A DNA stretch of 64,000 bases. Source: Proteromonas lacertae. Its lineage: Eukaryota. Location: positions 620,001 to 684,000 of the forward strand of contig NGBS01001160.1 in the NCBI GenBank assembly GCA_002245135.1, written 5' to 3'. Below the pieces are notes generated by a model that did no database searches, was not told the origin of the DNA, and saw only the letters and a list, made by a program, of their open reading frames with translations. Shown one piece after another: positions 13,985 to 57,773 of this stretch (positions are counted from its first letter, which is position 1; the number at the start of each line of letters is the position of its first letter). The position numbers and the translations under genes were made by a program.

Positions 13985-14004
13985 CAGAGTTTTTCGTTTT
14001 GTTC
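13985..14004 (+). repeat. Tc1/IS630-type terminal inverted repeat, left boundary of the island
   Basis: TA|CAGAGTTTTTCGTTTTGTTC matches the reverse complement of 57754-57773 (TA|CAGGGTTTTTCGTTTTGTTC) at 19/20. A similar subterminal motif (GATCTTGTGTTTTGGA vs GATCCTTGAGTTTTGGA) lies inside both ends. Confidence 0.7.
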
Positions 14005-14674
14005 CTTTTCTTCTGAAGTTGCTTAATAGGTTATAAAAGAGTTGGTTATTTTTTGTGTGTGTATTTTTTGGGATCTTGTGTTTTGGATATCCACTCAAAA
14101 TTTGGACACCCTATTTCTAGAGGTGTTTCAACCTCAATAATTATATTTATCTTGCTATAATCATAAAACTAAGCGTTTCTGAACTTATCTTTGTATTTCG
14201 TTAACTTTCAATTCACACATTATGACATTATTTTTAAAATTTGAGCACCTCATGGTCCAGACTATAGAGCATAATAACTGCATCTTGGATCTCCAATTTT
14301 ATTTATATATTATGATTATTGAATGAGAGTGCTCAAAAAATAACAAGAATCGAAACAAACATAAGTTTGATCATTTTTTCAATTTTTATTTTTTGAGCAC
14401 CTCTCCTATAGGAAGTAAGGGCTCAATATAATAATATATTATGTGTATATGATGATTATTAAACTTATTTATTTAATTGATTAATAATTGATTTATAGCA
14501 TAATAAAATAATACACATATGTAAATATTTATACTTTTATCAAACATATTTGTAAATATTTCTAATTATAAACATATAAAACACTAACAGATGTATATTT
14601 ATTTGTTACTCAATGATAATTTAACCTTTGTCTTAAAAATCAAATCAAAAATCCATAATAACATCAATGTGTCT

Positions 14675-15547
14675 TTTTTCTCAGTTTGCATAGCTTCTAC
14701 TATAGCTAAATTTGCACCTTCTTCTACTACTTTACCTTCTTTACTAATACACTATAAAATTACCAGTTGTTGTGCGCTGTTGAGCGTTAAGAAAACTTTT
14801 TTCAATTCTAAAATGATAGTGTGTGGTTTGATGGCGAGTTATATGCAAATATAATCTTACTTTGTCATATAAGCTACATCTGCGATATATAGTTTTTTGA
14901 ACTTTATTTAAACATATTGAAAACAACTATAATTTTATTTTTAATTTTTTTGCTTCAATCACTACTAGAGTTAAAAATACATTAGTTTAAGCAATTAAAT
15001 CGCACATATTTAGATGTTAAGACACTTAAAAACGAAAAAATTAAAAATCTATTCAAGCCTCATTCAAGCCTGTTTTTTCAAAATAAATTTTAAGCAGGTA
15101 AATGCAATAAGTAGGTATTCTTTTTCTATTTAAAGCCTTTATCCCGATGTCTACTATTGTTATAAGCATTTAAAATAATATAAAAATAAAAAGTGTTTCC
15201 AGTACAGGAACCTAAACACGACTATACGATAATAGGCCAACGTAACTATTTTGGAAAACAAAGTGTTGATTAGTAATATTGAAGGGCCAGAGGTTACGTA
15301 TATAATATTAGAATTGAAAAAAGTCTTCTGAACGCTCAACGGAGCATTTAGCTCAACAGTGCACAACACCAGTCATTGATACAAGTTAAGAATTTGGAAT
15401 GATTTACTTCAGGTTTTGGAATCATGCTTTGATAATTTTCTTTCTAAAGCATTTCTTACATCTATAGTGAAGCTACCTCCATAACCTTCTACTAATCTTT
15501 TCATATATTGTACAGCTACTTCTTTAACTTTGTATAACTTTTACTTT
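14675..15547 (-). pseudogene. Fragment of propionyl-CoA carboxylase alpha chain (C-terminal/biotinyl domain), interrupted by a MITE
   Basis: Minus-strand pieces VAVQYMKRLVEGYGGSFTIDVRNALERKLSKH / IPKPEVNHSKFLTC / MTGNF / VKEGKVVEEGANLAIVEAMQ resemble the PCCA pattern SKFLxxPMPG...LAVVEAMKM; frameshifted. Confidence 0.65.
14768..15368. mobile_element. MITE family A, copy 1 (601 bp, TGTTGTGC...GCACAACA, 5-bp TSD CCAGT)
   Basis: Imperfect TIRs TGTTGTGCGCTGTTGAGCGTTAAGAAAACTTTTTTCAATTCTA; CCAGT at 14763-14767 and 15369-15373; removing the element restores the PCCA fragment. Confidence 0.9.
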
Positions 15548-15880
15548 TGTTGTGCGCCGTTTGTCATAGTTGGCCGTTTGTCTACCAGACACTTTTAAAA
15601 CAAACTAAATGTATATTCTTACTTGTCTTGATGAAAAATTGTTACTTTTATACTTACTTTGTTATATGACCTACCTCTGCGCTATACTTTTTTGTTAATA
15701 TAAATAGTTTGAATATTTGCGCCATTTGTTTTCTAGAAATTTTTGAAGCAAACTAAATGTATATTTAGCTAATATAGACTAAAATCTATTAGCTGAAATG
15801 ATTAGAATATAATAATTATTAAATCTTTATATATAAAAAAGAAATGTAAAAATAGGCTTGAGTGAGGCTTGATTCTATAT
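15548..15880. mobile_element. MITE family B, truncated copy (one arm plus core)
   Basis: Starts TGTTGTGCGCCGTTTGTCATAGTTGGCCGTTTGTCTACCAGACAC, near-identical to the arms at 19492, 52685 and 53908; ends after the AGGCTTGAGTGAGGCTTGA core. Confidence 0.85.
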
Positions 15881-16239: not shown

Positions 16240-16700
16240 ATGAAATAATAGCATAAGATAGTATTTGGCCTGAGTACTGTGAAAATCTGAATAACCAACT
16301 TCAACTGCTGGCAAAAGATAGTAATAAATACTATGTTAATGGCAATGTAATTGTTATAAAAGACAGAATATGTATATAATATCAATATTGATAATAATTT
16401 GATATTTTGTAGCTGTGGTTACAGGGAATTCACAGGAATTCCTTGTAGCCACATTCTGTGGATAAAGATTAAAATATCATAAACTGTATCGATAGAAAAC
16501 TTAATATGCAATGAAGCATATACTTCATATTTTAATTCTTCAAAAGATATAACAAAATATAATATCAAATTCAATGATACTACCCAGTTAATTGATGAAG
16601 ATTTAAATATTTCTACCTCAACAACCTCAGATGTTAATAGTGACACATTTAAAACTAGTGTAGACAATATACAACAGAAATATGCTTGTTGATATTTCAT
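16240..16700 (+). pseudogene. SWIM zinc-finger fragment, likely a MULE/Mutator transposase remnant
   Basis: 16408-16460 translates CSCGYREFTGIPCSHIL (CxCx8CxH SWIM motif); surrounding frames are broken. Confidence 0.6.
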
Positions 16701-16798: not shown

Positions 16799-17395
16799 GT
16801 GCACTGTTGAGCTAAATGCTCCGTTGAGCGTTCAGAAGACTTTTTTCAATTCTAATATTATATACGTAACCTCTGGCCCTTCAATATTACTAATCAACAC
16901 TTTGTTTTCCAAAATAGTTACGTTGGCCTATTATCGTATAGTCGTGTTTAGGTTCCTGTACTGGAAACACTTTTTATTTTTATATTATTTTAAATGCTTA
17001 TAACAATAGTAGACATCGGGATAAAGGCTTTAAATAGAAAAAGAATACCTACTTATTGCATTTACCTGCTTAAAATTTATTTTGAAAAAACAGGCTTGAA
17101 TGAGGCTTGAATAGATTTTTAATTTTTTCGTTTTTAAGTGTCTTAACATCTAAATATGTGCGATTTAATTGCTTAAACTAATGTATTTTTAACTCTAGTA
17201 GTGATTGAAGCAAAAAAATTAAAAATAAAATTATAGTTGTTTTCAATATGTTTAAATAAAGTTCAAAAAACTATATATCGCAGATGTAGCTTATATGACA
17301 AAGTAAGATTATATTTGCATATAACTCGCCATCAAACCACACACTATCATTTTAGAATTGAAAAAAGTTTTCTTAACGCTCAACAGCGCACAACA
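16799..17395. mobile_element. MITE family A, copy 2 (inverted relative to copy 1, missing 4 terminal bp)
   Basis: Reverse complement of 14768-15364. ORF translations across both copies are identical; 597 bp = 601-4, so no net indel. Confidence 0.9.
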
Positions 17396-19020
17396 CTTGG
17401 AACTTACTTGAAAGTCATCCTCAAGGAGTATATGCACTCAATGATCTTTCCCAATGAATGTTACGATGCTCTTGTCAAGATGATAACAGGGGAGGAGGAC
17501 TCCGAAGGAGTCTTCTTAAGGTACATTACTAGAGCAAGATCCATCGATAAGAACAACTACAATGAGATGGAGCAGGAGTACTTACTTACCCGTCACTATC
17601 AACTCAAGATTATCTCCGAGAGAATGGATCTCTTCATTAACAGCACCTGTAAGCTCCAAGGAAGTGATCTTCTAAGACCAGCCTTAAGAAACATCCAAGA
17701 ACGCCTTAAAGATATACAATACTTTGTCAAGGACTCCAAGATCAAGGAGGATAATACCAACTACTTCATTCTCACATCTCAATTCATCGATAAGGTCATC
17801 ACTTCCCTAAGACAACTTAGTAAAGCTGCTAATCACCTGGCTGTTGAACTAAAGGCTTATGAGAAGATGCTTAAACGCGATCATCCGATGCTCTTCAAGG
17901 ACAAGACAATCTCCATGGATGCATACCTTAAGGCAACTAACTACTTGATCAACTACACCAATGAAGTTTTTCAGATCCTGGAAATGGAGAAGCTGTATCT
18001 TCCTAAGAATCAAATGCTGAAGGTGTTTAAGAAACTCTATCAATCTCATGAGCATTACGTCCTTAAGGATTCTGCTTACTTCCTTAAGTGCAAGAGTCAA
18101 TCTTGGAGCTACGTGAAAGTAGAGAACCGACCTAGTACAAGACCAGACTCCGAGAAAGTACTTGTCTTTGACGAGGACAACTTACTTCATGCACCCACAG
18201 CTGTTACTTACACGCAAATGAAGTTAGTCAAGGAGATGATGGATAACGCATCCCAACACTACGTAGACTTTAACAAGGAGATGAATACATGGTTGAAATA
18301 TTAAGGTATTGACTTCCAGGATCTTCCAGTTACTTCATTGAGTCTCAACTTTAAGGATTTCGAGCAGGAGGAAGAAGACATCACTGGTAATGAGTCCATG
18401 GAGGAGGAGGATAATGATGATGATTATGGTAATATCGATGGTAAGCAGGAGGATTCATCTTCAGTAACAACTTAAATCCCGACATCTTTAGCAGTGATAA
18501 CGATACTGATAAAGAAGATATTGATAAGGCCGGTAAGGAAGTTAAATTAACTCCTGTCAATGCCAATGAAGAGAACGTTCCTAAGCTAGTCGATGAATTG
18601 CTAGAGCAACCACCTCCACTACCTCCTAAGCCTGTAATTACCAAGACTGATGATAAACCTATCATTACGAAGATGAAGAAGAAGACTTCTAAGCAATCTA
18701 CTGCTGGTAATCTTCCAAAGGAACCTTCAAAGGAACCATCAATGGAGCCTTCAAAGGAGCCTTCAACAATACCAGTAATCACCAGCTTCCTATCTTATTG
18801 AGAATAACCATGAGGATATCAAGGGCTCTGATGATGATGATGAACTTAACTTAGCTTCCACGGGACCAAAGTTACCTTCAATGATAAGTCCAGCTCCACA
18901 AGAGACTAACTCCTTGGAAGGCACCGAGATAAACAATACCTGGCAGAACACCAGCTGTTTACCAGACTTAGAAGAAGAACCGTATATGAACTCACCTATA
19001 CCTGACTTAGACATGCTTTA
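17396..19020 (+). pseudogene. Large unknown ORF (helical N-part, acidic/Pro-rich tail with KEPS repeats), 5' end cut by MITE A, broken by a stop and frameshifts
   Basis: ORF 17237-18304 minus its MITE-derived first 53 aa; coding-style sequence continues past TAA 18302-18304 (GIDFQDLPVTSL..EEEDNDDD) and into 18598-18801 (QPPPLPPKP..KEPSKEPSMEPSKEPS). Confidence 0.55.
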
Positions 19021-19491
19021 ACTTAAGGCTTCTCTTGTTATTGAATATCATTCTTGTTATTGTGGGTTTGTACAGATACTGCTACATAAATCTTATCGGA
19101 ACATCGTCTATTGATGATTGCCATCACACGATCGCCTATTGGCTGTTGAATGATGGTTATCATCATCAGTCAGTGTTATCCTTGCTTTTGAATCTCCAGA
19201 TAGAACAACTAACTACGATAACATTAAAGGACTTACTTTAATTTTCTTATATACACCTTGCAGATCCTTCTGAGTCTAGCAGCTTCATTGACTTTACCTT
19301 TACCTTTACGGGATGTTATCTTCCTGTTGATCACGTTCTTGATCCAGTACTTGACCTTCCATAAGATACTTCTTCCTCCTATGGTAATCAACTCTAAGTC
19401 ATCCTCAGAAGCAGAGCTAAAGCTTCTTGCACGATAACCATTCCTCCCTTCAGGCATCTCCAAGGAGTCCTTGAATTTACCTAGTACTTGT

Positions 19492-20124
19492 TGTTCTGCG
19501 CCATTTGTCATAGTTGGCCGTTTGTCTACCAGACACTTTTAAAGCAAAATAAATGTATATTCTTACTTGTCTTGATGAAAAATTGTTACTTTTATACTTA
19601 CTTTGTTATATGACCTACCTCTGCGCTATACTTATTTGTTAATATAAATAGTATGAATATTTGTGACGTTTGTTTTCTAGAAATTTTTGAAGCAAACTAA
19701 ATGTATATTTAGCTAATGTAGACTAAAATACATTAGCTGAAATGGTTAGAACAACTTAATGTTGATCATGTGACATATAAAATAAAAAAGAAAATATAGA
19801 ATCAAGCCTCACTCAAGCCTATTTTTTACGCTTTTTTATATATAAAGATTTAATAATTATTATATTCTAATCATTTCAGCTAATGTATATTAGTCTATAT
19901 TAGATAAATATGCATTTAGTTTGCTTCAAAAATTTCTAGAAAACAAATGGCGCAAATATTCAAACTATTTATATTAACAAAAAAGTATACTACAGAGGTA
20001 GGTCATATAACAAAGTAAGCATAAAAGTAACAATTTTTCATCAAGACAAGTAAGAATATTCATTTATTTTGCTTTAAAAGTGTCTGGTAAACAAATGGCC
20101 AACTATGACAAACGGCGCACAACA
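19492..20124. mobile_element. MITE family B, full copy (~633 bp, ~240-bp arms)
   Basis: TGTTCTGCGCCATTTGTCATAG...CTATGACAAACGGCGCACAACA with core TCAAGCCTCACTCAAGCCT; no TSD visible. Confidence 0.88.
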
Positions 20125-20919
20125 AGTGTTACTTTCTTCGTAGAGTAGATATTCCTGGGCAATGAGTAAGCTAGCAATCTCCTTTGATACATTGACATTG
20201 AACTTCTTTTGTTTATCCCGACAATTGCAATTAGGAATCAACTCAATAGCTTGCTTATCATCCTCATCTAACATACCCAGCTTCATGCACTTTAAAGTGA
20301 TATCCTTCACATCATCTATTCCTAAGGAGATGTTTAATGTGTTGTACTTATCTAGGTTCATCTTATAGGTAAAATCAAAGGTCCATTGCCTTATGAAGAT
20401 GCGGACGATTCTCTCTCCAGGATGTGCAAGGCCATAAATCTTCCTACGATCAGTCATGTGATTGTACTTCACTAGGAAGCAATTGTCCTTAAAGAGATAT
20501 TCACCTGATCCTCTAGGCACTTCCTCAGCTTCATGATCATCATTTCCGATAATCCTGAAGAGTCTCTTGAGTACCTCCCTATTACGATCCACGATCTTGA
20601 GCTTAGCGTAACATTGATGATACATTGGAAGAGTGATCTTCTTATCGTCTAGGTCAGGGATGAACTTAGCGATGCAATCTATGATCACTGGTTTCTCGGG
20701 AGTGATGGTAAGTCTTCGATAGCTATGTCCTTGCTGATGATACTCTGAGTAGATGCTAGCCTGACCGTATAGTTCTGATTCCTTTACAGTTGCCTCATAA
20801 GTATAGATTCTCATTACCATCTTTGAAAGCCCTTTCATCATGAACTCATCCTTACGATCGTCTTCATACTTCTCGGTGATCTCCTTGATAAGATTGAAGT
20901 AGCTTCTGTTCTTATTCAT
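20125..20919 (-). CDS. Unknown protein, paralog of 21030-21695; 3' end runs into MITE B
   Basis: Shares YFNLI..ITE.Y...RK.E, TITP..PVI.DC, KI.D.N...L..LF..IG...H.AE.V.RG, R.WTF.F, KY.TL....GI.DV.DIT..C with the neighbouring ORF. Confidence 0.7.
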
Positions 20920-21029
20920 CGATCAAGTATAGGAATAAGTTTATTGAACTGAATCAACCCCGAGATTACCATCCCTCTGAGAACTATCACTCCTGGAGGA
21001 TTGAATTCCATGATGGATGGATGAGATCA

Positions 21030-21695
21030 TTACTTGGTATTTCCTTTGAACTCCTTCCTTGCAGCTATGCATCTATCGGTGATGTCCTCCACATCGTTGA
21101 TACCAACAACGACTTCTAAGGTGTGGTACTTGGAGTAGTCCTTTGAGTCAATAAAGTTAAAGGTCCATCTAGGGAGTCTTAAACGAAAGATCCTCTTACC
21201 AAGACTTGCTAGGTGTTGAAACTTACTAATTGTTTTAGCAGCCCGTAGCTGACATTGCAACTGTACATAATCAGTTCCTCGGGAATTGCTTACTATTATC
21301 GTTCCTCTTAGAACATCCTCAGCATTGTGTTTGTTATCTCCGATCACTTCGAAGAGCTTCCTTAAGGTCTGATGATTGCTATCATGGATCTTCAGATAAA
21401 TCCTATTGTCACCTAAGTCCCGAACAACACTTCCAACACAGTCCACAATCACTGGGATCACCGGAGTGATGGTTACCTTCCTTGTTCTTGGAATGCCTAT
21501 ATCCATAAAGCTTTTTATCATAGCATCCCCGTAAGTGTCAGAGTCTTCTACTCGTATCTTATATGTGAAGAGCTTCTCAATCTTCTCCTGTCTGGTTGTC
21601 TTCTTCGGGAAGGTCAGTTCCTCCTTACGTTCCTGATCGTAGTTCTCGGTGACTTGACGGATCAGGTTGAAATAGTTCTCATTCATTGACTTCAT
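21030..21695 (-). CDS. Unknown protein (221 aa), paralog of 20125-20919
   Basis: Intact intronless ORF; aligns by eye with the adjacent ORF along its whole length. Confidence 0.7.
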   Translation of the reverse strand: MKSMNENYFNLIRQVTENYDQERKEELTFPKKTTRQEKIEKLFTYKIRVEDSDTYGDAMIKSFMDIGIPRTRKVTITPVIPVIVDCVGSVVRDLGDNRIYLKIHDSNHQTLRKLFEVIGDNKHNAEDVLRGTIIVSNSRGTDYVQLQCQLRAAKTISKFQHLASLGKRIFRLRLPRWTFNFIDSKDYSKYHTLEVVVGINDVEDITDRCIAARKEFKGNTK

Positions 21696-23715
21696 CGGCT
21701 GAGAATTATCGGATTGCCCTCAACTCACTTTGTTAATTAAGTCTTGACGTTTCCCAGAATTGACTTTTTACTCACTCCTGGTAATCACGCAATTCCCGGT
21801 CATCTCCATGAAGATAAGGATTCCTCCGAAGAATGAACTTAGAGCAAATGCAAAGTCCAATCAATGCAAGACCTTGTAAGATTCCTATGGTTCAAAGCGT
21901 TCTCGTACTACCTACGGCTAAGTGAATGCATCTCCAATCCCTTACTATGCGATAAGTCGATTACTAAGATAGAGGAGGACAATCATCTATCCATTAACGT
22001 ATTCAAGATGCTTCAGAAGCCAGATATTCACTTAGTCCCTTTACGTACTTCGAAGACACCTTCCAATGATTCCTATAAGCAGGTGAGCTTGCTTTACCTG
22101 GAAGAGAATTGTAAGCCTTCAACATCTCCTAGTACGGATACTCCCAATGATGAATCTCTTAGCGCTTCTACAATCATCCATTTCCATTTATCAACCCAAG
22201 ACAAGAGAAGTAATTGAATCACCATGAAAGTTAGAAGAAGAAGTCTGGCCTTTGACGTCTATTTATCATGAGTGTGATAATCCTACTCCATTGATCTATC
22301 AACTCCGACAACTCGTTAAGGATCTTACTTATTGAATCTAGTCTTTGTTGTGTGTAGTCAACGATATAGATATACCTTGTAGATACCTTAGTGCTGGTTA
22401 CCGTGGTGACTTCATTGTCTTGTTCATTACTAGGCCTTGAAGATTGTTGATATCTCCTTACTTCCTCTTGAGATAGTCTACTCCTTCCTACGTGTTCCTC
22501 CAATTCCTTCTTACAACCACGTCTCCTTACCGAGAAAATTGCTAGATAATTGATCTCCTTATGAAGTTGCTGATCCATCTTCTTGAAATCAACCTTACCG
22601 AGGATAGGTAAGTTGCTATTTACCTCCTCATCGTCGAAGTCTTCTAGGTATTAACTCATAATGGACTTTTCGATATAAGCAAGTTTCTCAACGATGGCAC
22701 TTAGGACATAGTACAATTTACTTAGCTGAATCTTGTTAGTCTTCACCTTCCCTAGAACTTCAAATGATCTCCTTGTCTTCTCAGTTGAGAACATCCCATC
22801 ACAGTTATTGAACTCTCCGAGGACACCTCCCTTATCTAGCAATGATCGGAGTACTGCCTCTCACAACCTTGGTACTTGAGATAATCCTTTACCCTCTGGT
22901 TCCTTTGAAGCAACCTCTTATCGGTAGCGTTCTTGAAGTATTGCATTCACGGGGGTGTTCAGAAATTGTTTACTGCCGAGATAGTTGAACTATTCCGATG
23001 CCTCCTTCTATAGATCATGCTGTGTCCTGCATTAAGAACATTTACTTACTATCCTTCTACGTAGTGCTAGTATCAATGGTCCTTGCCTTTATCTATATGA
23101 AGCTTCAGAGCATACAACACCAGGCAAGATTATTTCATCATGCTGACCTTGATGGATTCAACAATCGTTTATTAAGAGTTTACCCAGCTGATCTCCTGCT
23201 CCTTGTAGGTAACAATGTTGTTCCCGTGAATGAGGTTTTCGACGATGATTTCCTAGATGATGAAACTTACTTACAATGGAGGATGCATTTGCCTTTAAGC
23301 TAGCTAGCTAAATCTCCTGCTTATCGTTGTGGTTGATGGTACCTTTGCTTTGTTGGGATGATCGAAAAACATCATCTTATCGGGGATAGGTACAATGGAT
23401 AAGCACCTAGCCTGGTTCTGAACAATGTGAAGGTTCAGTAACAGATTACCCAGTGAATGGTAAAGAGCTAAAGGCTTCTTCCATAAAGTACCATTCATGA
23501 TCGTGATGGAGTGGTAGGGTAGTTTGGAACTGACTGCTTGCTGATCCTTAAAGATGTTATCCTCCATACTCTTCAGAATCGAATTAGTTTACCTAGACAA
23601 TTAATGTGGATGATGAGACTTACCTACTGAAGACTCTTGAGATTGCTGCTATCTCTTTTCATTTTCCTTAAGAATTAAAGAATTGAGTGAAGCCTCCCGA
23701 AGTCACCATTGCATG

Positions 23716-24128
23716 CTTGTTAACAATTGTAAAGTCCCAGTTCCACGATTGAGTTCTCCACTGAGTTCTCCATTGAGTTCCAAGATTGCCCTGTTGATTA
23801 CCCTAGCTTTTCAATGGCCTTATAAATTGACTGATTAATAGAAGAACCATCAAGACCTTCCCAGATACATCCAGCCGTGTATGACTGCGTCAGGGAATCT
23901 CCCATGATGGGAGATTCCTTCCTTTCCAACACGGCTGTTCTTCTCGGGAAGGTCGTGGATGAACTTATCTAGGAGAGTTATAAGGATGATAAAACATACC
24001 TTCAGAAGCCTTCCGAGATTGCTAATCATTATCTTCAAGGGACCTTGAGAAATCCACAACTAGCTAGAACCTCCTGGAGTTGCATTTGGTAACTTGTTAA
24101 CAATTGTAAAGTCCCGGTTCCACGATTG
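23716..24128 (+). repeat. 36-bp direct repeat pair (23716-23751, 24093-24128) plus short GAGTTCTCCA tandem units
   Basis: CTTGTTAACAATTGTAAAGTCCC(A/G)GTTCCACGATTG occurs twice with one mismatch. Confidence 0.85.
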
Positions 24129-24209
24129 GTTTCCACGGTTCAATTAAAAGCCCTTACAAGGTCACCAGTGTAGCAAGGAGAGTCAAGAGCGTGATTAGAA
24201 TCATCACTA

Positions 24210-24381: not shown

Positions 24382-24400
24382 AAAGTTATTCCTATTCTTC

Positions 24401-44637: not shown

Positions 44638-44641
44638 TTGA

Positions 44642-45574: not shown

Positions 45575-45581
45575 AATAATA

Positions 45582-46428: not shown

Positions 46429-46445
46429 TTATATATAATTATATT

Positions 46446-47336: not shown

Positions 47337-48320
47337 TAAATTGATAAACATTTAACATTTTTCCTTTTGCAAGCTAAATTAAAATATGAACTTCTACAAC
47401 TTCCTATTACATTATTACATTCAGAAAGGATATAATTTTCTGCAATTAGTTTAACTACGCATTTATTTATTTTATTACTATTATGCATTGCAAATCTTGC
47501 ATGACATATTTTTCCTTTTATAGTAAAGTTTATAATATTATTCCTATAAACTGATTCTATATATTTCTTAGTTGTAGTAGAATCAGACACTATAAAAATT
47601 TTTGATTTATTATCATTCTTTAATATAGCGTTAATATTTTTAATATATAAATCAATACTACCATTGTTATAGAACCTATTATCGCTTTCTCCGAAGTCTG
47701 ATAAATAACCTGTTCTTATATGTACTCCTATTATGTGGGATATTTTCTTAAATCTATTGAACTGTAAAATATGATTGTTTATTACTGAGGTTGCTATCAA
47801 TAATGTTTGATAAACAAACATTTCTATATTTCTATATTTTTCTTCATTTTGTTTCATTATTTGCTTTATTTTATTTGTTAAATTGTAGAATAATAAAATA
47901 TATGATACATAACTATGATATGTATAAATTCTTATAGGAATTCCATTTCTTAATTCTTTTAATACATTTATATTATTTTTGTTAAAAGTTTTTATATAGC
48001 TGATATTGTAATATTTAAGAAATATAATTTTTGGAATTTGAAAATAGAACATAATTTCGACCCAATTTATTATAAACATTGGATGATAAGACAGTATGGA
48101 TAATAGAATCGTACTTGCTAATGTGGGTATTTTATTGGCAAATCCACATCCTATATAAGGATAAAACAGTATTTTAGAATTATTGTTTTTCTTATTTACT
48201 ACTAGAAAATCATACCACATATCCAATTTAGTATATTTTTTTTTTTTCCATACTGTAATTATTATTAAAAGAATTAAAAGAACATTAAATATTAGAACTA
48301 TTTCAGAAAGTTTATTTATA
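47333..48320 (-). CDS. Fucosyltransferase-like (GT23/GT37/NodZ superfamily)
   Basis: GCGFANKI, IGVHIRTG, IFIVSDS, AENYILSEC, SSYF. The frame is open upstream of 48226 through a hydrophobic anchor. Confidence 0.8.
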
Positions 48321-48362
48321 TCTTATTATAGCAATTAACCAAATAAATCAAATCTCTATAAT

Positions 48363-49388
48363 ATGATATTTTACCTCTTTATTATATATATACTATTTTC
48401 TGTATATCTATTTAATTATATATGTAATTACATCTTTAAATTATTATTTTATAATACATTTCGTAATGAACACCAATTATTCTTTCATGATTTATTAATT
48501 AATTCTAATTTTACATCATTATGTCTATCTAAACATTTGTTTGATATGAGAAAAAGGTCAAAATATAGAAAAATAGGATATGGTGGACATCCTGAAAAAT
48601 ATATTATTTCTTTCCCATTAGATAGAAAAATATTATTATCTCCAAAGCTTATGCGCAATTATGTATATCTTCTTATATTTATACATTGCAGACCAGAAGA
48701 ATTTTATGAAAGATTAATTTCAAGAAAAATTTTATATAAAACAAAATTAGCAATAATAATATATATCACTTTAAAAAGCAATAATTATAAAATTAACAGA
48801 AAATTAGAATATGAAGCTAGTTTGTATAATGATATTGTTCAGTTTAATGAAATGTCATCATATTTTAATTTAAGTATACAGACAGCTCATATGATATCAT
48901 GGTCAATTAATATACGATTTAAGTATTTGTTAAAATCTGATATTGATGTATATGTTAATGTTCCTATAATTTATAACTGGCTAAAATACTATCAAAGCAA
49001 TAATTTGAATTATGCTATTGGTAAAATATCTAAAAGAACATTCATACTTAGAAATAAAAAATACAGTCACTATGTTCCTAAAAATATTATTAAAGATAAT
49101 ATATATCCTCCTTATTTGCAAGGCGTTGGATATATAATTCCTTACAGTACTGTTGTATTATTGAATATATCGATGAAATATGTCAATCCAAAAATTTGGA
49201 TTGAAGATGTTTTTATGGGATATATGTTCAAATATAATAATATATCGCTGATAGATATTTCTGAATATATAATTAGAGATCTTCCATACAATATATGTAC
49301 TACTATTCATAGTTTAAATAAGTATATGTTAATTCATGGATTTTATCCAATTGAAATATATATTATAAAAAAAAACAAAGTGAAGTAA
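48363..49388 (+). CDS. GT31-like glycosyltransferase
   Basis: EASLYNDIV, SYFNL, KSDIDVYVN, YPPYLQGVGY, IEDVFMG, IHG. Confidence 0.85.
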   Translation: MIFYLFIIYILFSVYLFNYICNYIFKLLFYNTFRNEHQLFFHDLLINSNFTSLCLSKHLFDMRKRSKYRKIGYGGHPEKYIISFPLDRKILLSPKLMRNYVYLLIFIHCRPEEFYERLISRKILYKTKLAIIIYITLKSNNYKINRKLEYEASLYNDIVQFNEMSSYFNLSIQTAHMISWSINIRFKYLLKSDIDVYVNVPIIYNWLKYYQSNNLNYAIGKISKRTFILRNKKYSHYVPKNIIKDNIYPPYLQGVGYIIPYSTVVLLNISMKYVNPKIWIEDVFMGYMFKYNNISLIDISEYIIRDLPYNICTTIHSLNKYMLIHGFYPIEIYIIKKNKVK

Positions 49389-49640
49389 CTTTCAAACTAT
49401 AAAATGTTGATATATTATAACAACATATCACATTATACACCTTTCTTATAATTATGTTTATAATTGTTGATATGTTAAAAAGCATTAGATTCACATTTTC
49501 TATATGCTTTCCTAAGTTTAAAAAGAATAAAAGAAATATGTTAAAAAATAAGTTCTATTATTTGAATCATAAAATATTGCATTGTTGGATTGTTTATTTT
49601 TAAAATTCGAATTTATAAAAGCAGATTGTCATAAGAAACT

Positions 49641-50503
49641 TTATTTATAATGATATCTTGCTATTATGTTATCTTTTATTGTATTATTGCAATTAAATTT
49701 TCTAATAATTTCATATCCCATATTATATAGAATTTGAAATAATTTTTCTATATCATATTCTCCTTTTCCATTCCTATTGCCACATGAGGCTTCTATATAT
49801 ATGAATTCACTTTTATGATTATCAAAAAATTGTTTTCCTCCTTCTATTAAATCATATTCAGCTGCTTCTACATCTATTTTAATCATTGATACAGTTGAAG
49901 GTATTAATTTATCAAAATCATCCAATCTTTTTACTAAAATTTCTTCTGAATAATCAGTGTGGTTGTAATATAAAGATGAATAAGACCAATTTTTCTTTGA
50001 TATTTTCATTGTTTGAATTTTTTCTTCCTTTCCTAAACCGTATGGAAATATAGTTATGTATTTAGAAAATTTTGGATTCATAAAAGTTGTTAAACTGAAT
50101 TGAAATAAATTGTTCGGAAGTGGTTCAAATGCATAAACAGTGACATTTTCTTCAGCAAAAACAAATGAGCAAGATCCTATATTAGCTCCAAAATCTATAA
50201 ATATTCCTTCTTTATTGCCAGATGAATATATATCATATATTTCTTGACATTCTAACCATTTACCTTGCTTTTTAATGGCATGGAAATATAATCATTTGAT
50301 CTCAATAACTGATAAAATGAATTAGTTTTATACTTTGCTAAAGCAAAATAGAATATTTGTTCATTTATTATAGTCGGTGGAACTATACAATGGAGTGAAT
50401 TAATGCTTTTATAATTTGTATATTTAAATTCGAAATTAATAAATTTAAATTTGCATAAAAAAAATAAAGCAATTACTACAAAAAATATATAAATGAACAG
50501 CAT
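49641..50503 (-). pseudogene. FkbM methyltransferase with one frameshift (~50280)
   Basis: Anchor + NDYIS | GKWLEC, FIDFGANIGSCS, AFEP, GLG, RLDD, MIKIDVEAAE. Confidence 0.8.
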
Positions 50504-50549
50504 ATGATGTTTATATTTTTTGAATAAATGTATGTATTATTTAACTTAA

Positions 50550-51889
50550 CTAGATTATTATAATTAGCTTATATTTTTTTATTGTTACATCATTTAACAT
50601 ATCCAATTGAATTAATATTTTACTCATTTTTACTTCAGTAGGTACAAGTGGGTGTCTTAGAAACGATTTAATGATTTAAAGCAATTAATTTCTAACTGTC
50701 TATTAAAAAAGATATTGATTCCCTATAACTAACATTCATTGATTTTAAATAATTGATTAGCGTTAGATTACCAAAACTATTCTTCATTCTGTATAGGCAA
50801 TCAGGCATACTACATTGTTGATCAGGCAAAATTAATATAAGATGATGTGCAATGCATGATTTAACTGCATGATGCAATTTTTTAAGTAGCATAATCTTGG
50901 GAAATATTATGTATTTATTGTATAATGATGTATAATATTGATTTTCATCATTATAATATAATAGTCTTTCTTTAAGTGAAAATTCTTTGTCACAATGGAT
51001 TGGATGAACCATACATAGATTTTTTACAATTTTTTCAGGAGGTATACCTACAGTAAACAAAGGTAAAGTATAAAGACCTTTTGTTATATTGCTGAATAAC
51101 CTTAGAGATAAAGATAGTACTTCTTGATCACCTAAATAACTATTTATTCCCATTCTAATATGGCTTTTAATGAATTCTAATCCATATTTCATCATCATGT
51201 ATGTATTTTTTGAAGATTTAATTTTACTACATACAATATTTAGTAATATACGTTATTCCAGAGTTACCATAAGTTTGTTTATTTGGTAATTGACTTTTGA
51301 GTAATACAACATCTTCTTTTCTATTAATCAAATCACTAAGGCAATTATTAATAAACATCACGTCACTATCAATGAATAATATCGAATAGTTATTTTTAAT
51401 AAACATATACATGTAGTAGTATTTTAAAAACCATAATCTTTTTCTAATTGGTAAAGTATTTGCTCTTTTTATAAAATCTGGCCATTTTTGATATAAACAA
51501 TATATATTATATTGTCTACATTTTTGTAGAGTTGTATTAAAAAAGACAATTGTTATAAGACTGCTGATGTTATATGGTATTAAAAAAATTTTATATAGAT
51601 TAATTAAATATTTGAAACTATGATCATCAATCACAGTAAAAAATATAAGTTCATTAATTATGTTTTGTGAATATAAGAATTCAATAACATTATGATAACT
51701 AAAATTATATTTATCAAAAGAGTAAAGGAATGTATTTATCTTACATACATCTTTTACAGGAATAAGTAAACTAACATTAGGATAATCTCTTTTACATGAA
51801 TTAATATAATTAGTATTAAATAAAACCAAAATTAACAACATCATTGAAATATATATAATAATAGTAAATAGAATGATTAGTAATGTCAT
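50550..51889 (-). CDS. GT77 nucleotide-diphospho-sugar transferase
   Basis: WFLKY, ILFIDSDV, NSG, 25-nt GT-AG intron near 51227-51251, GDQEVL, MVH. A possible extra 3' exon (SFLRHPLVP) follows an unusual intron. Confidence 0.75.
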
Positions 51890-52013
51890 TATATATCATA
51901 ATGTTATTAGAATTTTTTGTAGGTTATGTTATTCATTATATATTTCCATTCTAATTCTGATAGTTTTGGAATTTATAATCCATGCTAATGTATATTAAAA
52001 AAATATATCTAAA

Positions 52014-52550: not shown

Positions 52551-52684
52551 GATAAAGTAGTAAAACAATAGTTATATCTTCTTTCTTGGTGGAGCTAAAA
52601 ATGCCTCTAGTTTAATGATGGTTATATAATGACAATCTCTATATAAAGTGGATTATGATTTGCTTTAGGAACAGTTGTTACATA

Positions 52685-53294
52685 TGTTGTGCGCCGTTTG
52701 TCATAGTTGGCCATTTGTCTACCACATACTTTTATAACAAACTAAATGTATATTCTCGCTATTCTTGATGAAAAATTGTTACTTTTATACTTACTTTGTT
52801 ATATGACCTACCTCTGCAGTAATACATTTTTGTTATTATAAATGGTTTGAATATTTGCGCCATTTGTTTTCTAGAAATTTTTGAAGCAAACTAAATTCAT
52901 ATTTAGCTAATATAGACTAACTTAATGTTGATCATAATACATTTAAAATGAAAAAAGAAAATATTGAATCAAGCCTCACTCAAGCCTACTTTTACATTTC
53001 TTTTTTTATATAGAAAGATTTAATAAATATTATATTCTAATCATTTCATCTAATATATTTTAATCTATATTAGCTAAATATACATTTAGCTTGCTTCAAA
53101 AATTTCTAGAAAACAAACGGCGTAAATATTCAAACTATTTATATTAACAAAAAAGTATACTGCATAGGTAGGTCATATAACAAAGTAAGTATAAAAGTAA
53201 CAATTTTTCATCAAGACAAGTAAGAATATACATTTAGTTTGTTTTAAAAGTATGTGGTAGACAAATGGCCAACTATGACAAATGGCGCACAACA
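52685..53294. mobile_element. MITE family B, full copy (610 bp)
   Basis: TGTTGTGCGCCGTTTGTCATAG...CTATGACAAATGGCGCACAACA, long arms, TCAAGCCTCACTCAAGCCT core; no TSD visible. Confidence 0.9.
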
Positions 53295-53299
53295 TTTTT

Positions 53300-53907
53300 T
53301 TATAAAATGAGCAATTTCTATAGTTGTTGTTATATTTAAACCATCCACTAAGGGTTTATATTTTGAAGCTTTCTCTTTACATATTGGTACAAATTCATCA
53401 GCAATTTTAGGTATATCCCATCCATTGACATATTTCTTGGTTTATACCAAGTATTGAATTTGATTTGTGGTGGTGTATAATAATGATCCCAAAAATTGAA
53501 CATAAATACATCAGATTCTTCTCCTAATGAAGTTGAACCTCTCCATATTGTTTCTAAGGTTTGACTTTGTCTACGACGTTCTTTATCTAAATAATCAATT
53601 CTGTTTGTTCCAAATGCATCAAATCCCATTTCTGACATTAATCTTGCGTTTTGACTGGAATGACCGAAAGGATCAATATGCCAACCTACTCTTGGTCTTA
53701 TTCCAAATTGTTCTTTAATATATTTTGTTCCTAAAGCCATTTGATGAATCATTGCTTCATAATTAGTACAAGCTTCATCATGCATAACCCATCCACCTAA
53801 ATTCAACTCTAGGTTCACTCCACCATCTTTGAAAAAAACTCTGTTCTACATAAGTAAATTTATGCTTTGGATTTTATTCATTGATTAAAGTATTGAATTA
53901 ATAATAT
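53300..53907 (-). pseudogene. GH38 alpha-mannosidase N-terminal fragment
   Basis: KFTYVEQSFFQRWW, GGWVMHDEAC, PRVGWHIDPFGHS, MGFD, RIDY; internal deletion; flanked by MITEs on both sides. Confidence 0.85.
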
Positions 53908-54312
53908 TGTTGTGCGCCGTTTGTTATAGTAGGCCGTTTGTCTACCAGACACTTTTAAAACAAACTAAATACATATTCTTACTTGTCTTAATGAAATATT
54001 GTTACTTTTATACTTACTTTGTTATATGACCTATGTCTGCAATATACTATTTTGATAACTTTAGTATTGAATATATGAAACGCAATTATTTCATTAACTA
54101 CAAGAGACTAAAACAGATTAATTGAATTGATTAAAATTAATGAACATTTACTTATACATGTCTAAAAAAGAAATGTAAAATGTAGGCTTGAGTGAGGCTT
54201 GAATTTATTTTTATTTTTTGGTTTTTAAGAGTCTTCAAATTATAACTTCAACGTAATCTATCTAAAACCCTTTTATCTCCCAACGGCGCAAATCTCCCAA
54301 CGGCTTACAACA
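53908..54312. mobile_element. MITE with a B-type left arm and an A-like right end
   Basis: TGTTGTGCGCCGTTTGTTATAG...AGGCTTGAGTGAGGCTTGA...CTCCCAACGGCGCAAATCTCCCAACGGCTTACAACA. Confidence 0.75.
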
Positions 54313-54857
54313 AGATTCATCAGTGTTACACTCTTCTGTAAGTTTGTAGTATTTCAAGGTATTTCTTTCTTGTTTTATTGTTTATAGTTCTAAAACGTTT
54401 ACTAGTTTTAATAGTTTTAAAAGCATGAGTTATTTTCTGTAATTTTGTTACTCTTCCTTCAAAACAGTTACTATCCGATCTTGTTTTCTAAATTGAAAAT
54501 ATCTCTTCTATTGGATAATACCACATTGTAGTATAATATATTCACTGATTTATTTATAATAGATTCTACTTCAGGATTATGGTGCATAGAAGCGTTATTC
54601 ATGAATATTATACAAGATGACAATGGCTGAATATAATTAACCAAAGACTTTAAGTATGAATTGAATATTTCCAATGTATTAGAACCATAAATAACTAAAT
54701 TATATAGCATCCCAACATCAGCCATACTAGCTATTACAGTAAATTGGGAATTACCTCTCTTGGAATGAACAACAGGTGTATTACCAGAAAATTCTCTTGC
54801 GCCACTGTGAATGTAACCCATTGCTCAGTGCCTTTCATCTACAAATACTGGGCGTAA

Positions 54858-57247
54858 CTGAGTTCGGCAACGGGACGTCCTTTTGTGTTTTGTCCCGTCC
54901 CTTGTCCTTTTCATACACGAAAACTTCTCGTTGATTACACATGTCCTCTTTGTCCCGGGACGTGTAGTTTAACACGTCCTTTTTTGTCCTATATTTTTGA
55001 GTTTAAATTTCTGTTTTTTTAATTAAAATATTCTGCAATAACATTAAATAAGCTTAATATTAAGTATTACATACTATACTCAAGTCATTTTTGTATATCC
55101 TAAATAATATCTTTTGAAAATCCATTTAAGCCATATTTGCTATATCTATGAATAATATTTAACCCACTTATACCACTTAGATAACTCTGTATAGTTTAAT
55201 GAAGTATATCCCCATTTACAAACACTCATCGCATAACAGAACTTCACATGATACATGCTTATCATTACACTATTTTCTACTATAACATATGCTTGAATTA
55301 AATACGAATAAAAAGTAGAAAAAAGAAAAAATGTTTGATTAACTCGAGTTCTTGCATTTTGAATGCCATCTCATAATAGGTTTAGAGATAATATCTATAG
55401 ATTATATAACATCAATAATTGCATAGAAAGACCTGGAGAGAAGAATAAAAGGATTGAATGCAAAAAGTGCAAAATGTTTATCATCAAGCATGCTACTCAG
55501 TTAAAAAGACATGCAAGACAGTATTTTAGATTATTATTATAATTTATAGTTGCACAAGCGTAGCAGTTCAGTCAACAATTGATATGAGTGATCATAGCAA
55601 AGACATGGAGATTGTTGAGTTAATAATAGAAAACAATCTCCCTTTAAGCGTAGTTGAATCCAAATCGTTCAAAAGCTTGTTCAAAAATTATGCTGTGCCA
55701 TCAACTAAAAAAGTAAAAAGAATAATTGAAACAGAATCGAAGAAAATGTTAAATGAGTGTATAGATAGAAGAAAAAAACTAACAATAATATTGGATGAAT
55801 GGAAAAATATACTTGGAAATAGCATCATAAACATAGCAGTTAAACAGAATCAAAGAATTGTATTTGTTGAAAGTGTATTACAAAAAAAGGTACAAACAAC
55901 AAGAAATATTGTAGATCTTATTTCTGATACCTTAGAAAGAAATAATTTGGATATGAATAACATTTCTGCAGTAGTAACTGACAACAATCCAACTATGAAA
56001 CATATTGGTGAAGTTATTCAACAAAGAACAAGCAATACAATTAATACATTTGGTTGCCTTGCTCATGTTGTAAATTTAATTACCAAAAAAATAATGGAAA
56101 TTGATAAGTATAATGATATTCTTCAGTATTGCAATGACATGATTCATAAACTAAAAACCAATACACGAGTAAGACAATTTATATTCAACAAATATCAGGA
56201 AGTTCCGCAGATCAGAAAAGGATGTCCAACTAGATGGACATCCTTTTCAAAAATGTTTAGCAAAATTATTAAACACAAAGATATTTTAATTGATGCTAAG
56301 TTATTAGATGAAAGTCGTTGCGAAGAAATAAGTGAAATAATGAAAATTACCAACAAGCTATCAGCATATGTGCAAGAATTAAGCAGAGATAGCACTACTT
56401 TAAGCGATGCATACTGTATCATTAAATCAATGAAGAGATATTTGAAGTCATGCGAAAATGATAATATTAAGAATATAATTACCAAACAATTGGAATTAGC
56501 GAATTTGGATATATTATTGATAAGTCAATATTTAAATGTAAACTATAAATTCAAACATGGAGATAAAAATAATTACGCAAAGAGATTCATTATAGATAAT
56601 TTCTCTGATATTTGTGACAGAAATTTGGTTGCAGAAATATACTTTTTTGAAAACAGAATGCCATACAATGGTTCACCTTCTTCCATTTTTCGCGAAAGCA
56701 TTTCAACAGATATATGGTTTGCAACATATGGGATATACTTTAGAAATTTAAAGAAAATTTATGACATTTTATCAACAATACCATGTTCAAGCTCTTTTAT
56801 TGAGAGAATTTTCTCCATCGAAAGCGTAATACATTCATACAGGAGAAACAGATTAAACTTAGATACTATTAATAACATTATGAGATTAAAGTATGAATTA
56901 GTTGAGAGAAATAAGAGAGAAATAGAACAAAATGTAGAAAGTGATGAAGATGAAGAAAGTGAAGAAGATGAAGAAAGTGATGAAGATGAAAATAGAGAAA
57001 TTACTAATGTGGAAGTAATAAGTAAAGAAGATGATGAGCAAAGTGAAGAAGGTAGTCCAGATTATCAATGTTATTATTAATTATCTTTATTCTTACTTAT
57101 AAATGTTTTAATAAAATAAAAAATCACATAATTAATTTATATAACAAAAAGGTAATATCAAATGTTTACAAAAAGGACAAATTACTGTCCTTTATCATAC
57201 TCTTGTCCCGGACATGTCCTTTTTGTCCCTGTCCCCGCCGAACTCAG
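54858..57247 (+). mobile_element. hAT DNA transposon, 8-bp TSD GGGCGTAA
   Basis: TIRs CTGAGTTCGGC / GCCGAACTCAG; GGGCGTAA on both sides; TGTCC(C) subterminal repeats. Confidence 0.93.
55584..57080 (+). CDS. hAT transposase (upstream BED-finger exon likely near 55430-55520)
   Basis: LDEW, VTDNNPTM, CLAHVVNL, TRWTS, PCSSSFIERIFS, RRNRL; upstream ECKKC...H. Confidence 0.9.
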   Translation: MSDHSKDMEIVELIIENNLPLSVVESKSFKSLFKNYAVPSTKKVKRIIETESKKMLNECIDRRKKLTIILDEWKNILGNSIINIAVKQNQRIVFVESVLQKKVQTTRNIVDLISDTLERNNLDMNNISAVVTDNNPTMKHIGEVIQQRTSNTINTFGCLAHVVNLITKKIMEIDKYNDILQYCNDMIHKLKTNTRVRQFIFNKYQEVPQIRKGCPTRWTSFSKMFSKIIKHKDILIDAKLLDESRCEEISEIMKITNKLSAYVQELSRDSTTLSDAYCIIKSMKRYLKSCENDNIKNIITKQLELANLDILLISQYLNVNYKFKHGDKNNYAKRFIIDNFSDICDRNLVAEIYFFENRMPYNGSPSSIFRESISTDIWFATYGIYFRNLKKIYDILSTIPCSSSFIERIFSIESVIHSYRRNRLNLDTINNIMRLKYELVERNKREIEQNVESDEDEESEEDEESDEDENREITNVEVISKEDDEQSEEGSPDYQCYY

Positions 57248-57753
57248 GGGCGTAATTCTTGCTCCATGTATCCTAACATATCCAAAAAACTATTTATCTA
57301 TTCTTATTAAGTGATGAATGGATAGCAGCTGTGTACTCTCTAACAGCAAACGATAGATACAGAGACTGGCTATTATTTCTGATAACATTGCCTATTATAT
57401 TCGATTTATTTTCAGTTAAAATCCTTTTCCTACCTTTTTTGATAGATGATTTATCAATATTGTAACTTTTTTTAATTGACTGATAATTATCTTAACTCTA
57501 TTGGCAGATGGTGGAGGTTGTTCTTCTACTATAGGAGCAGAGCTTATGAAATCTTGCCTATAGTATTGATATTGATGTGTATATTTACCATTGATTTAAA
57601 AAATAATATTTATGCAAGTTTAGAGTATATTCAAAAAACACGAAAAATAAATAAAGACAAGCTAGCTCGAATTGTTTTTTGAGAAAAGAAATTGTATTTT
57701 ATAAAAAGATAGTCCAAAACTCAAGGATCGAAATTTATTTTGCAAAGCTCGTA

Positions 57754-57773
57754 GAACAAAACGAAAAACCCTG
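57754..57773 (-). repeat. Tc1/IS630-type terminal inverted repeat, right boundary of the island
   Basis: GAACAAAACGAAAAACCCTG|TA, upstream of the Tc1 transposase pseudogene; matches 13985-14004. Confidence 0.75.

Follow-up and report, generated by a model that had tools for sequence, protein, structure and literature searches.

Tc1/mariner integration leaves a TA on both sides of every Tc1 insertion, and the efficiency of Tc1/mariner transposition drops steeply with length. Starships carry a tyrosine-recombinase "captain" gene at one end. ToxhAT is described as a 14-kb, hAT-bounded element that carries ToxA, and Teratorn as a 180-kb fusion of piggyBac and a herpesvirus. In the IS630 family, the composite transposon Tn630-NC1 is reported to measure 6.5 kb (PMC11544213). 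Here we analysed a 64-kb window (the whole stretch of DNA under study) in which a sequence-only reading had proposed a giant composite transposon, namely a 43.8-kb interval bracketed by two facing Tc1/IS630 ends. The two ends are true termini that belong to a single Tc1/IS630-type family, and they are probably not the termini of one mobile 43.8-kb unit.

Results

Two facing ends of one Tc1-type family

The 20-bp inverted, TA-flanked ends proposed at 13985 and 57773 were both recovered. The left terminal inverted repeat (13985..14004, + strand), an orphan end, reads CAGAGTTTTTCGTTTTGTTC and is preceded by a TA at 13983-13984. The right one (57754..57773, - strand) reads GAACAAAACGAAAAACCCTG followed by TA on the + strand (57754-57775, with the TA at 57774-57775), and its reverse complement, CAGGGTTTTTCGTTTTGTTC, is identical to the left end at 19/20 positions. 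With up to 3 mismatches, these were the sole two matches in the window, and two or more matches occurred in 0 of 100 shuffles; allowing up to 6 mismatches added six 20-mers, each with exactly 6 mismatches and none flanked by TA (0/6). A second-order Markov model run 30 times produced 0.07 inverted 20-mers per window when no more than 1 mismatch and a minimum of 6 G/C were required, and the form TA-CAG...CTG-TA was seen in 0/30. The match between the left and right ends is thus far beyond chance. Their assignment to the Tc1/IS630 type was likewise upheld, since the right end leads directly into a DDE_3 transposase and a complete sister element, Tc1-A, starts similarly (TACAG..TTTTTC).

Further inside, the subterminal motif said to be shared by the ends amounted to no more than GAGTT(TT)GG, approximately 50-55 nt from each terminus. 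Local alignment of both 80-nt ends returned the 20-mer alone, and the interiors of the two ends showed no significant likeness (z 1.3). A nearby partner for each end, which the sequence-only reading had named as evidence against itself, was searched for, and no partner rose above noise in the 64 kb; inner ends that could act as a second partner for either terminus were also absent from the window at up to 6 mismatches. The 20-mer had two metagenome matches, both chance-like, and an exact lookup of 10 proteins returned none of them from the protein collection searched. The TA outside both ends is equally expected for two independent insertions, and it cannot tell one insertion from two because every Tc1 insertion is TA-flanked.

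The right end belongs to a truncated Tc1 element

The right end is the 5′ terminus of Tc1-B, a decayed Tc1/DDE_3 element that encodes its transposase on the - strand; this bears out the earlier claim of a decayed IS630/Tc1 transposase just inside this end. The adjoining segment (57256..57753, - strand) comprises the 5′ region of the element together with N-terminal transposase sequence that corresponds to residues 58-172 of P0160, a 389-aa DDE_3 database transposase that carries PF13358 and is encoded on a 1,632-bp contig; this part has lost approximately 30 aa internally and contains stops and frameshifts. The C-terminal part (54314..54857, - strand) corresponds to residues 170-355 and is 84% identical to P0160; the transposases of Tc1-B and Tc1-A share 41% identity. 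The DDE_3 match of Tc1-B (PF13358, E 2e-06) scores 28.2 bits, just below the curated cut-off of 28.6 bits.

The two parts are separated by a 2,390-bp element (54858..57247, + strand; hAT element 2), which was absent from the earlier reading. Its ends (CTGAGTTCGGC) are identical at 11/11 positions, a perfect 8-bp target duplication (GGGCGTAA) lies at 54850-54857 and 57248-57255, and an open 498-aa ORF (55584-57077) encodes DUF659 (PF04937) and a hAT dimerisation domain (PF05699). By its 8-bp duplication, short inverted ends and dimerisation-domain transposase, this element is a member of the hAT superfamily. When it is removed, the - strand of Tc1-B reads ...LGYMEQELRPVFVDERH..., continuous with the Tc1-A motif LAYLESGYRPIFVDESHW, and the VFVDE motif of Tc1-B spans the insertion site. 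The hAT element entered Tc1-B after the latter had inserted, creating the 8-bp duplication.

On its other side, Tc1-B is adjoined and cut by the right terminus of a MITE (53907..54313, + strand). A MITE had been noted in place of the 3′ terminal repeat of Tc1-B; its terminus does abut the transposase, at 54313 and not at 54312. Homology to P0160 residues 345-355 reaches 54313, the start of the MITE terminus, and Tc1-B is cut there inside its reading frame, the last 34 codons, the 3′ UTR and the 3′ end being gone. The sequence on the far side of this MITE is not Tc1-B. The 34 missing acidic residues gave no match in tblastn over the window at E up to 10, and a scan of the window for acidic runs returned five regions, none near 14 kb or adjoining MITEs. 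A clean single element between the two ends is not supported, given a copy that breaks off within its reading frame and whose coding tail lies nowhere in the window.

The left end is a bare terminus upstream of DNA-PKcs

The left end lies 115 bp from the DNA-PKcs start codon (ATG at 13870), as proposed. The seven bases before it repeat the TA and its first five bases, forming a tandem of two TACAGAG units (13976..13989, + strand). Inside it is a unique non-coding stretch (14005..14766) that contains no transposase remnant and has no significant likeness to the 3′ region of Tc1-A or the 5′ region of Tc1-B. Its GC content is 0.25-0.32 up to approximately 14440 and 0.13-0.19 thereafter; the first 300-450 bp have a transposon-like GC of 0.30, compared with 0.17-0.22 in nearby non-coding DNA, and this stretch is about the size of the 3′ region missing from Tc1-B. 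Since the left end is unlike the 5′ region of Tc1-B, it would be of the 3′ type, the part missing from the right copy. Similarity searches of 13985-17000 detected no remnant of a transposase. The locus therefore lacks two full copies paired in the manner of Tn5, and a two-copy composite transposon is not borne out.

A mosaic of transposons and native-looking glycan genes

Ordinary genes (hexapeptide/dynactin-like, HAD and GOST_TM) were found to the right of the right end, as the earlier reading held, and, in line with its statement on accessory content, all transposase matches and 11/11 MITE termini of the window lie between the ends. The interval is a mosaic of glycan-enzyme genes, DNA transposons, approximately nine MULE-type MITE pieces and a 7-kb GC-rich ORFan block; it holds two hATs, one hAT derivative and one complete 1.65-kb Tc1. 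The last is Tc1-A (39489..41136, - strand; 1,648 bp), which has inverted ends of approximately 47 bp with TA on both sides, starts with CAGTATTTTTC after its TA and encodes a transposase with stops and frameshifts. From its length and that of the 1,632-bp contig encoding P0160, the normal size of the end family is probably about 1.6 kb. One of the hATs, hAT element 1 (27443..29959, - strand; ORFs 27801-29174 and 29168-29626), was delimited by flank similarity to an internally deleted relative at 36855..37820 (+ strand), both flank segments being approximately 74% identical.

Two 597-bp MITE copies with ends GTGCRCTGTTGAGC, at 14768..15364 (+ strand) and, inverted, at 16799..17395 (- strand), are 100% identical. 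A foldback family with the terminus TTGTTGTGCGCC is represented by a half copy of one arm (15547..15880, + strand), a copy inserted in the GC-rich block (19488-20125) and another at 52684..53295 (+ strand), with an extra fragment at 52082-52162. Several MITE copies are 85-95% identical, and 4/9 MITE-family pieces are fragments. Decayed AT-rich DNA at 16360..16479 (+ strand) retains the remnant of a SWIM zinc finger (PF04434, E 2.6e-08), likely a relic of a Mutator-like (MULE) transposase.

Between the ends lie approximately 17 glycan-enzyme genes, whose codon use is host-like and whose introns measure 25-45 nt. A Methyltransf_24 gene of host-like composition (24401..25126, + strand) is followed by a first block (30189..36554) comprising a 320-aa ORF without known function, GT92, a GT31 fragment (32663-32956, - strand), a TylF O-methyltransferase, a multi-exon DUF229 gene (34108-35673, - strand) and an FkbM methyltransferase. 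The second block (41687..51895), which is packed very tightly, contains three GT31 galactosyltransferases, DUF1647, an FkbM methyltransferase, Nucleotid_trans and several family-less ORFs. A weakly matching Acyl_transf_3 fragment (38732..39298, + strand) and an isolated alpha-mannosidase (GH38 N-domain) fragment between two MITEs (53450..53873, - strand) were also present, with no further GH38 piece in the window. GC3 amounts to 0.14-0.17 in the glycan genes and to 0.17-0.18 in DNA-PKcs and the genes flanking on the right, and the DUF229 gene has GT..AG introns of approximately 25-40 nt, similar to those of DNA-PKcs (41-45 nt). In codon use and tiny introns, the glycan cargo looks native, matching the flanking host genes.

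The GC-rich block (17396..24400; 36-41% GC, ORF GC3 49%), which includes a paralogous ORF pair on the - strand (20077-20922 and 21033-21719), is putatively foreign or recently arrived DNA. A homologue search with one of its ORFs returned no homologue, and a relaxed family scan of 11 of its ORFs returned no viral family. The viral DNA that had been supposed in the interval was not found, as no viral family was detected in 51 ORFs of at least 100 aa or in 95 of the 136 ORFs of 50-99 aa.

Discussion

We favour, with a probability of roughly 0.5, the reading that each end remains from a separate ordinary element of approximately 1.6 kb and that the two lie at the margins of a native glycan-gene cluster full of transposons. 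A second family member, either full-length or short and non-autonomous, would have entered a TA upstream of DNA-PKcs, at a distance of 115 bp, and would since have lost all but one end. In a compact genome, transposons may persist in few permissive gaps only, and the cluster edges would be two such gaps. In support of two separate remnants, Tc1-B is an ordinary element (continuity across the hAT site, 84% identity to P0160, relatives of approximately 1.6 kb) that is truncated and not cleanly split, the left end is bare of transposase similarity over 13985-17000, the cargo is native by GC3 and intron size, and orphan pieces are common in the interval (4/9 MITE pieces, the GH38 and Acyl_transf_3 fragments); either model predicts TA flanks. 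However, neither end has another partner in the 64 kb, the ends face each other, and the window's entire transposon content sits between them. A left end of the 3′ type, followed by a GC 0.30 stretch roughly as long as the lost 3′ region, would complement the loss of the right copy, and two separate remnants make this complementarity a coincidence, the chance of which we estimate at approximately 1 in 4 to 1 in 10.

The same facing, mutually sole and complementary partners (5′ part on the right, 3′-type on the left) speak for a single ordinary Tc1-B that inserted between DNA-PKcs and the hexapeptide gene. Both ends would then stem from this one old element, the 3′ part of which would have been pushed 40 kb away as insertions, DNA taken up by duplicative capture and locally expanding gene families accumulated within it, the interval never having been mobile as a unit. 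Nested insertions are indeed seen (the hAT with its perfect duplication, the MITE at the break), and all transposon content of the window is inside the interval. We consider this possible but doubtful: approximately 17 intron-bearing genes of native composition must enter a 1.6-kb element, the truncating MITE has sequence other than Tc1-B on its far side, and an extra deletion is needed because the 34-codon tail is missing on both sides of the break. That a 43.8-kb cargo-carrying Tc1 element moved as a unit into the TA upstream of DNA-PKcs, through a transposase acting on its outer ends, seems to us decidedly unlikely. Its architecture of end, cargo, transposase and end with TA outside both, the lack of inner partner ends and the tandem TACAGAG, which may record transposase activity at the left junction, are in its favour, and ToxhAT and Teratorn are described as cargo-bearing eukaryotic cut-and-paste elements. 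Against it, nothing points to mobility, as a single copy is in evidence, with TA flanks that are uninformative on this. The interval is also approximately 27-fold longer than an ordinary family member is likely to be, contains a dead and truncated transposase, has inverted identity ending at 20 bp (47 bp in the sister family) and bears cargo not distinguishable from host genes; the steep drop of Tc1/mariner efficiency with length also counts against it. We are accordingly sceptical that a Tc1-type transposase once moved 44 kb, comprising approximately 17 working glycan-enzyme genes and resident transposons, by cut-and-paste as a eukaryotic Tc1 "macro-transposon", in which 20-bp ends would be enough to carry a whole metabolic gene cluster. 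An assembly artefact, in which MITE or hAT repeats mis-joined two loci with one Tc1-B-family end each, is very improbable. Near-identical repeats (597 bp at 100%, MITEs at 85-95%) can mislead assemblers, but the sequence bears no sign of a break, the window has no Ns, and genes cross most repeat-free stretches.

Movement of the interval as a unit, if it took place, would make this the first Tc1/mariner-bounded element to reach Starship-like size, and the commonest eukaryotic DNA-transposon superfamily would be able to relocate whole gene clusters. As the locus stands, transposons accumulate in and around a fast-evolving glycan-gene cluster of a compact, AT-rich genome, and facing orphan ends of one family can mimic a giant element. 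Between widely separated Tc1 ends, TA flanks have no evidential value, and an empty site or a second copy alone is decisive.

Like ordinary Tc1 (IS630-Tc1-mariner) elements, the family combines a DDE_3 transposase, DNA-binding in its N-terminal part, with short CAG-starting inverted ends and TA flanks, and measures approximately 1.6 kb in the sister copy Tc1-A and probably also in the nearest database relative; unlike them, the right copy is without its 3′ end, and the sole other family end faces it from 43.8 kb away. In Tn630-NC1, which shares the transposase superfamily, and in Tn5, two outer ends are described as moving whatever lies between them, and these are given as two complete IS copies around 3-5 kb (PMC11544213). 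Here, one dead copy and one bare end surround approximately 40 kb, in a eukaryote. ToxhAT, Teratorn and Starships are likewise presented as eukaryotic mobile elements with many cargo genes, but in their case multiple copies or horizontal transfer are described as documenting mobility. Teratorn is also described as containing a virus genome, whereas no viral gene was among the ORFs scanned here, and the Starship hallmark was lacking, with no recombinase or integrase family among the scanned ORFs of the window. The locus also resembles the transposon nests and accessory gene-family islands of compact genomes, in which DNA transposons, fragments and fast-evolving enzyme paralogues lie between conserved genes, and it differs from them in that its outermost features are facing ends of one family.

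Two matching ends face each other across the interval

The left terminus reads TA followed by CAGAGTTTTTCGTTTTGTTC at 13983-14004, and its inverted counterpart, identical at 19 of 20 positions and also flanked by TA, lies at 57754-57775. The sequence-only reading had proposed matching TA-flanked inverted ends, and this was borne out: they are the sole two matches in the window at up to 3 mismatches, and at least two matches occurred in 0 of 100 shuffles. With up to 6 mismatches allowed, six more 20-mers were found in the window, each with exactly 6 mismatches and none (0/6) flanked by TA. In 30 Markov simulations, inverted pairs of this kind appeared at a rate of 0.07 per window, and never in the form TA-CAG...CTG-TA. 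Because a TA outside both ends is expected with either one or two Tc1 insertions, this dinucleotide does not discriminate between the two. Inverted identity extends for 20 bp and no further, compared with ~47 bp in the sister family, represented here by the complete-ended element Tc1-A. The subterminal motif said to be shared by the ends amounts to GAGTT(TT)GG, ~50-55 nt inside each, and was not significant. A hidden partner for either end was sought with Hamming and Smith-Waterman scans and rejected, the scans reaching 23 and 28 against shuffled maxima of 32 and 33. Scanning metagenome contigs for the 20-mer gave two matches, both chance-like: one inside GC-rich, bacterial-looking coding DNA, the other on a 45% GC contig with neither a Tc1 ORF nor TA flanks. 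Viral contigs gave 0 matches.

The left end is situated 115 bp from the ATG (13870) of a DNA-PKcs gene, as had been noted. This gene occupies ~1843-13870 on the reverse strand, carries the Pfam domains DNA-PKcs_N, CC1-2, CC3, CC5, FAT and PI3_PI4_kinase, and has GT..AG introns of 41-45 nt. To the right of the right end, Pfam identified hexapeptide/dynactin-like, HAD hydrolase and GOST_TM genes. The window is very AT-rich (GC 22-30%) and eukaryotic. The whole analysis draws on these 64 kb and on protein databases. Genome organisation is unusually compact: very short introns (~25-45 nt, GTA...TAG, standard genetic code) are seen at 2700-2740, 3310-3350, 34270-34530 and 35320-35345, and the spacers between glycan genes measure merely 4-60 bp, indicating tight packing.

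The right end belongs to a truncated Tc1 copy

A DDE_3 fragment at 54474-54824 on the reverse strand shows 41% identity to the Tc1-A transposase, and sequence adjoining the right end corresponds (E 8e-05) to the helix-turn-helix part of Tc1-A. Between them sits a hAT element, hAT-2 (54858-57247, 2,390 bp). With hAT-2 removed, the reverse strand reads ...LGYMEQELRPVFVDERH.AMGYIHSGAREF..., continuous with the Tc1-A sequence LAYLESGYRPIFVDESHWMMGLVTGRARAE. This continuity, together with the helix-turn-helix match, identifies 57773 as the 5′ end of one decayed copy, Tc1-B, whose transposase lies on the reverse strand. The decayed Tc1-type transposase postulated inside the right end is thus confirmed, in two parts split by hAT-2, and the Tc1-type nature of the ends is supported, the right one being traced to Tc1-B.

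The sole database relative found for Tc1-B was P0160, a 389-aa transposase (PF13358) with 84% identity, encoded on a 1,632-bp contig. Its residues 58-172 align with 57499-57247, with an internal loss of ~30 aa, and residues 170-355 align with 54857-54313, where homology reaches the start of a MITE terminus (TTGTTGTAAGCC... on the reverse strand). P0160 ends in an acidic tail of 34 residues for which tblastn (E <=10) found no coding sequence anywhere in the window; a search of the window for acidic runs turned up five regions, none of which lies close to 14 kb or next to the MITEs. On the other side of the truncating MITE lies an isolated GH38 fragment and not Tc1-B. Taken together, the stop of homology at the MITE, the lost tail and the GH38 sequence beyond indicate that Tc1-B was truncated inside its reading frame, and not merely interrupted.

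No likeness to a Tc1 transposase was found at the left end in 13985-17000. The 762 bp inside it (14005-14766) are unique and non-coding; GC is ~0.30, which is transposon-like, over the first 300-450 bp, with AT-rich sequence beyond. Comparison of this interior with the 3′ region of Tc1-A gave z -0.1, with the 5′ region of Tc1-A z 1.5 and with the 5′ region of Tc1-B z 1.3, against z 3.8 for a positive control; none of the three is significant, and they speak neither for nor against a relationship. A tandem TACAGAG TACAGAG is present at 13976-13989, so that the 7 bases before the left end repeat TA and the first five bases of the end; this could have been left by repair after the transposase cut at this end, or stem from replication slippage.

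The interval holds several transposon families

All transposon content of the window lies between the two ends. Tc1-A (39489-41136, reverse strand; 1,648 bp) has inverted ends of ~47 bp and TA on both sides. The two ends of hAT-2 (CTGAGTTCGGC) agree at all 11 positions, its 8-bp target duplication GGGCGTAA is perfect, and an uninterrupted ORF of 498 aa encodes DUF659 and a hAT dimerisation domain; the element looks young and is possibly still active. For a second hAT element, hAT-1 (27443-29959, reverse strand), ends and target duplication were sought and were not definable; an internally deleted relative of it lies at 36855-37820.

A MITE family with the terminus TTGTTGTGCGCC is represented by nine pieces, four of them fragments, and all 11 termini found fall within 14767-54313, clustering near both edges of the interval. 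A decayed, Mutator-like SWIM-finger relic at 16360-16479 suggests a Mutator-like source for these MITEs. Two 597-bp copies (14768-15364 and 16799-17395), 100% identical, inverted and 1.4 kb apart, stand on either side of this relic and have either been duplicated recently or form a foldback structure with long arms. Direct repeats of ~85% identity, 13.7 kb apart (24210-24382 and 37993-38112), enclose the first block of glycan genes and hAT-1 and may be the ends of another element family; the second is followed by a palindrome with 75-nt arms (38117-38269).

Glycan genes look native, and a GC-rich block is foreign or recent

Approximately 17 glycan-enzyme genes (families GT92, GT31, TylF, FkbM, DUF229, DUF1647 and Nucleotid_trans) form two blocks, at 30.2-36.6 kb and 41.7-51.9 kb, with a methyltransferase gene at 24.4 kb. 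They look native in both GC3 (0.14-0.17 versus 0.17-0.18 in the flanking host genes) and introns, those of DUF229 being GT..AG and ~25-40 nt long. An exact look-up of 10 island proteins in a large protein collection returned none (0/10), and an atlas look-up gave a best score of 0.83 for a 355-aa ORF, under the lead level. GT92 relatives comprised nine matches, the best at 53-70% identity, on short contigs without genomic context. At 43612-45571, a 341-aa GT31-like ORF and a 310-aa ORF without a family lie 4 bp apart on the same strand (stop 44637, next ATG 44642) and could be one broken gene or a very tight gene pair.

The GH38 alpha-mannosidase fragment (53450-53873, ~420 bp) is isolated exactly between two MITE copies, and on its upstream side it ends in a TAG resembling a splice acceptor. 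It might have been an exon whose gene extends beyond the island, an arrangement incompatible with the island as a unit, but this was rejected: GH38 homology was found solely at 53450-53873 when 23 of 29 short reverse-strand segments were scanned (the six omitted lie in MITE sequence) and tblastn was run with 8 of the 150 GH38 proteins listed. The piece may have been captured or stranded through MITE-mediated rearrangement.

The block at 17396-24400 differs from its surroundings in GC content (36-41%) and in ORF GC3 (0.49, host genes having 0.15-0.18). The DNA is foreign or a recent arrival, and probably represents another transposon. Its ORFans, which include two paralogous ORFs (20077-20922 and 21033-21719), matched no Pfam family even at E <=1, and a search of 5.8 billion proteins with one ORF returned no homologue. 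The viral DNA that had been assigned to the cargo found no support, as no viral gene was detected anywhere in the interval.

Relationship between the two ends

We favour two separate Tc1 remnants bordering a native glycan cluster, with a probability of about 0.5. A link between the ends is nevertheless suggested by several features: neither has any partner but the other, the two are oriented towards one another, the left would be a 3′-type end while Tc1-B at the right is without its 3′ part, and the whole transposon content lies between them. Such a link would follow if insertions and expansion had since driven one old Tc1-B copy apart, or if the interval were a true 44-kb mobile Tc1 composite, the model of the sequence-only reading. 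Other findings argue against the interval being a mobile unit or a cleanly split element: Tc1-B was truncated with sequence loss and its lost coding tail is not beside the left end; the cargo cannot be told apart from host genes resident here; the normal size of the family is apparently ~1.6 kb; the inverted identity is 20 bp rather than the 47 bp of the sister family; and orphan transposon fragments are common across the interval. With a single transposase-bearing copy, the structure is also not a Tn5-like composite.

Inversion was excluded as a cause, since the ends would then be in direct orientation, yet they face each other. A giant MULE-bounded insert (14767-54313) splitting Tc1-B seems unlikely: its 9-bp flanks match at 3/9 positions, or 6/9 after a 1-base shift (by eye), and each terminus is also part of a complete local MITE. 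On balance of the evidence for and against linkage, and with inversion ruled out, we rank the two separate remnants ahead of a copy pulled apart, which appears unlikely, and of a mobile composite, which is more doubtful still; mis-assembly is very improbable, and a small share is assigned to explanations outside these four.

Comparison with known systems

A limited literature search found no eukaryotic element of ~44 kb bounded by Tc1/mariner ends. The parts themselves are ordinary Tc1, hAT and MULE/MITE members. For the mobile-composite reading, the closest bacterial precedents are composite transposons of the IS630 type, Tn630-NC1 (6.5 kb; PMC11544213) among them. The other closest precedents are Starships, the 14-kb hAT-bounded ToxhAT, and Teratorn, a 180-kb piggyBac-herpesvirus fusion.
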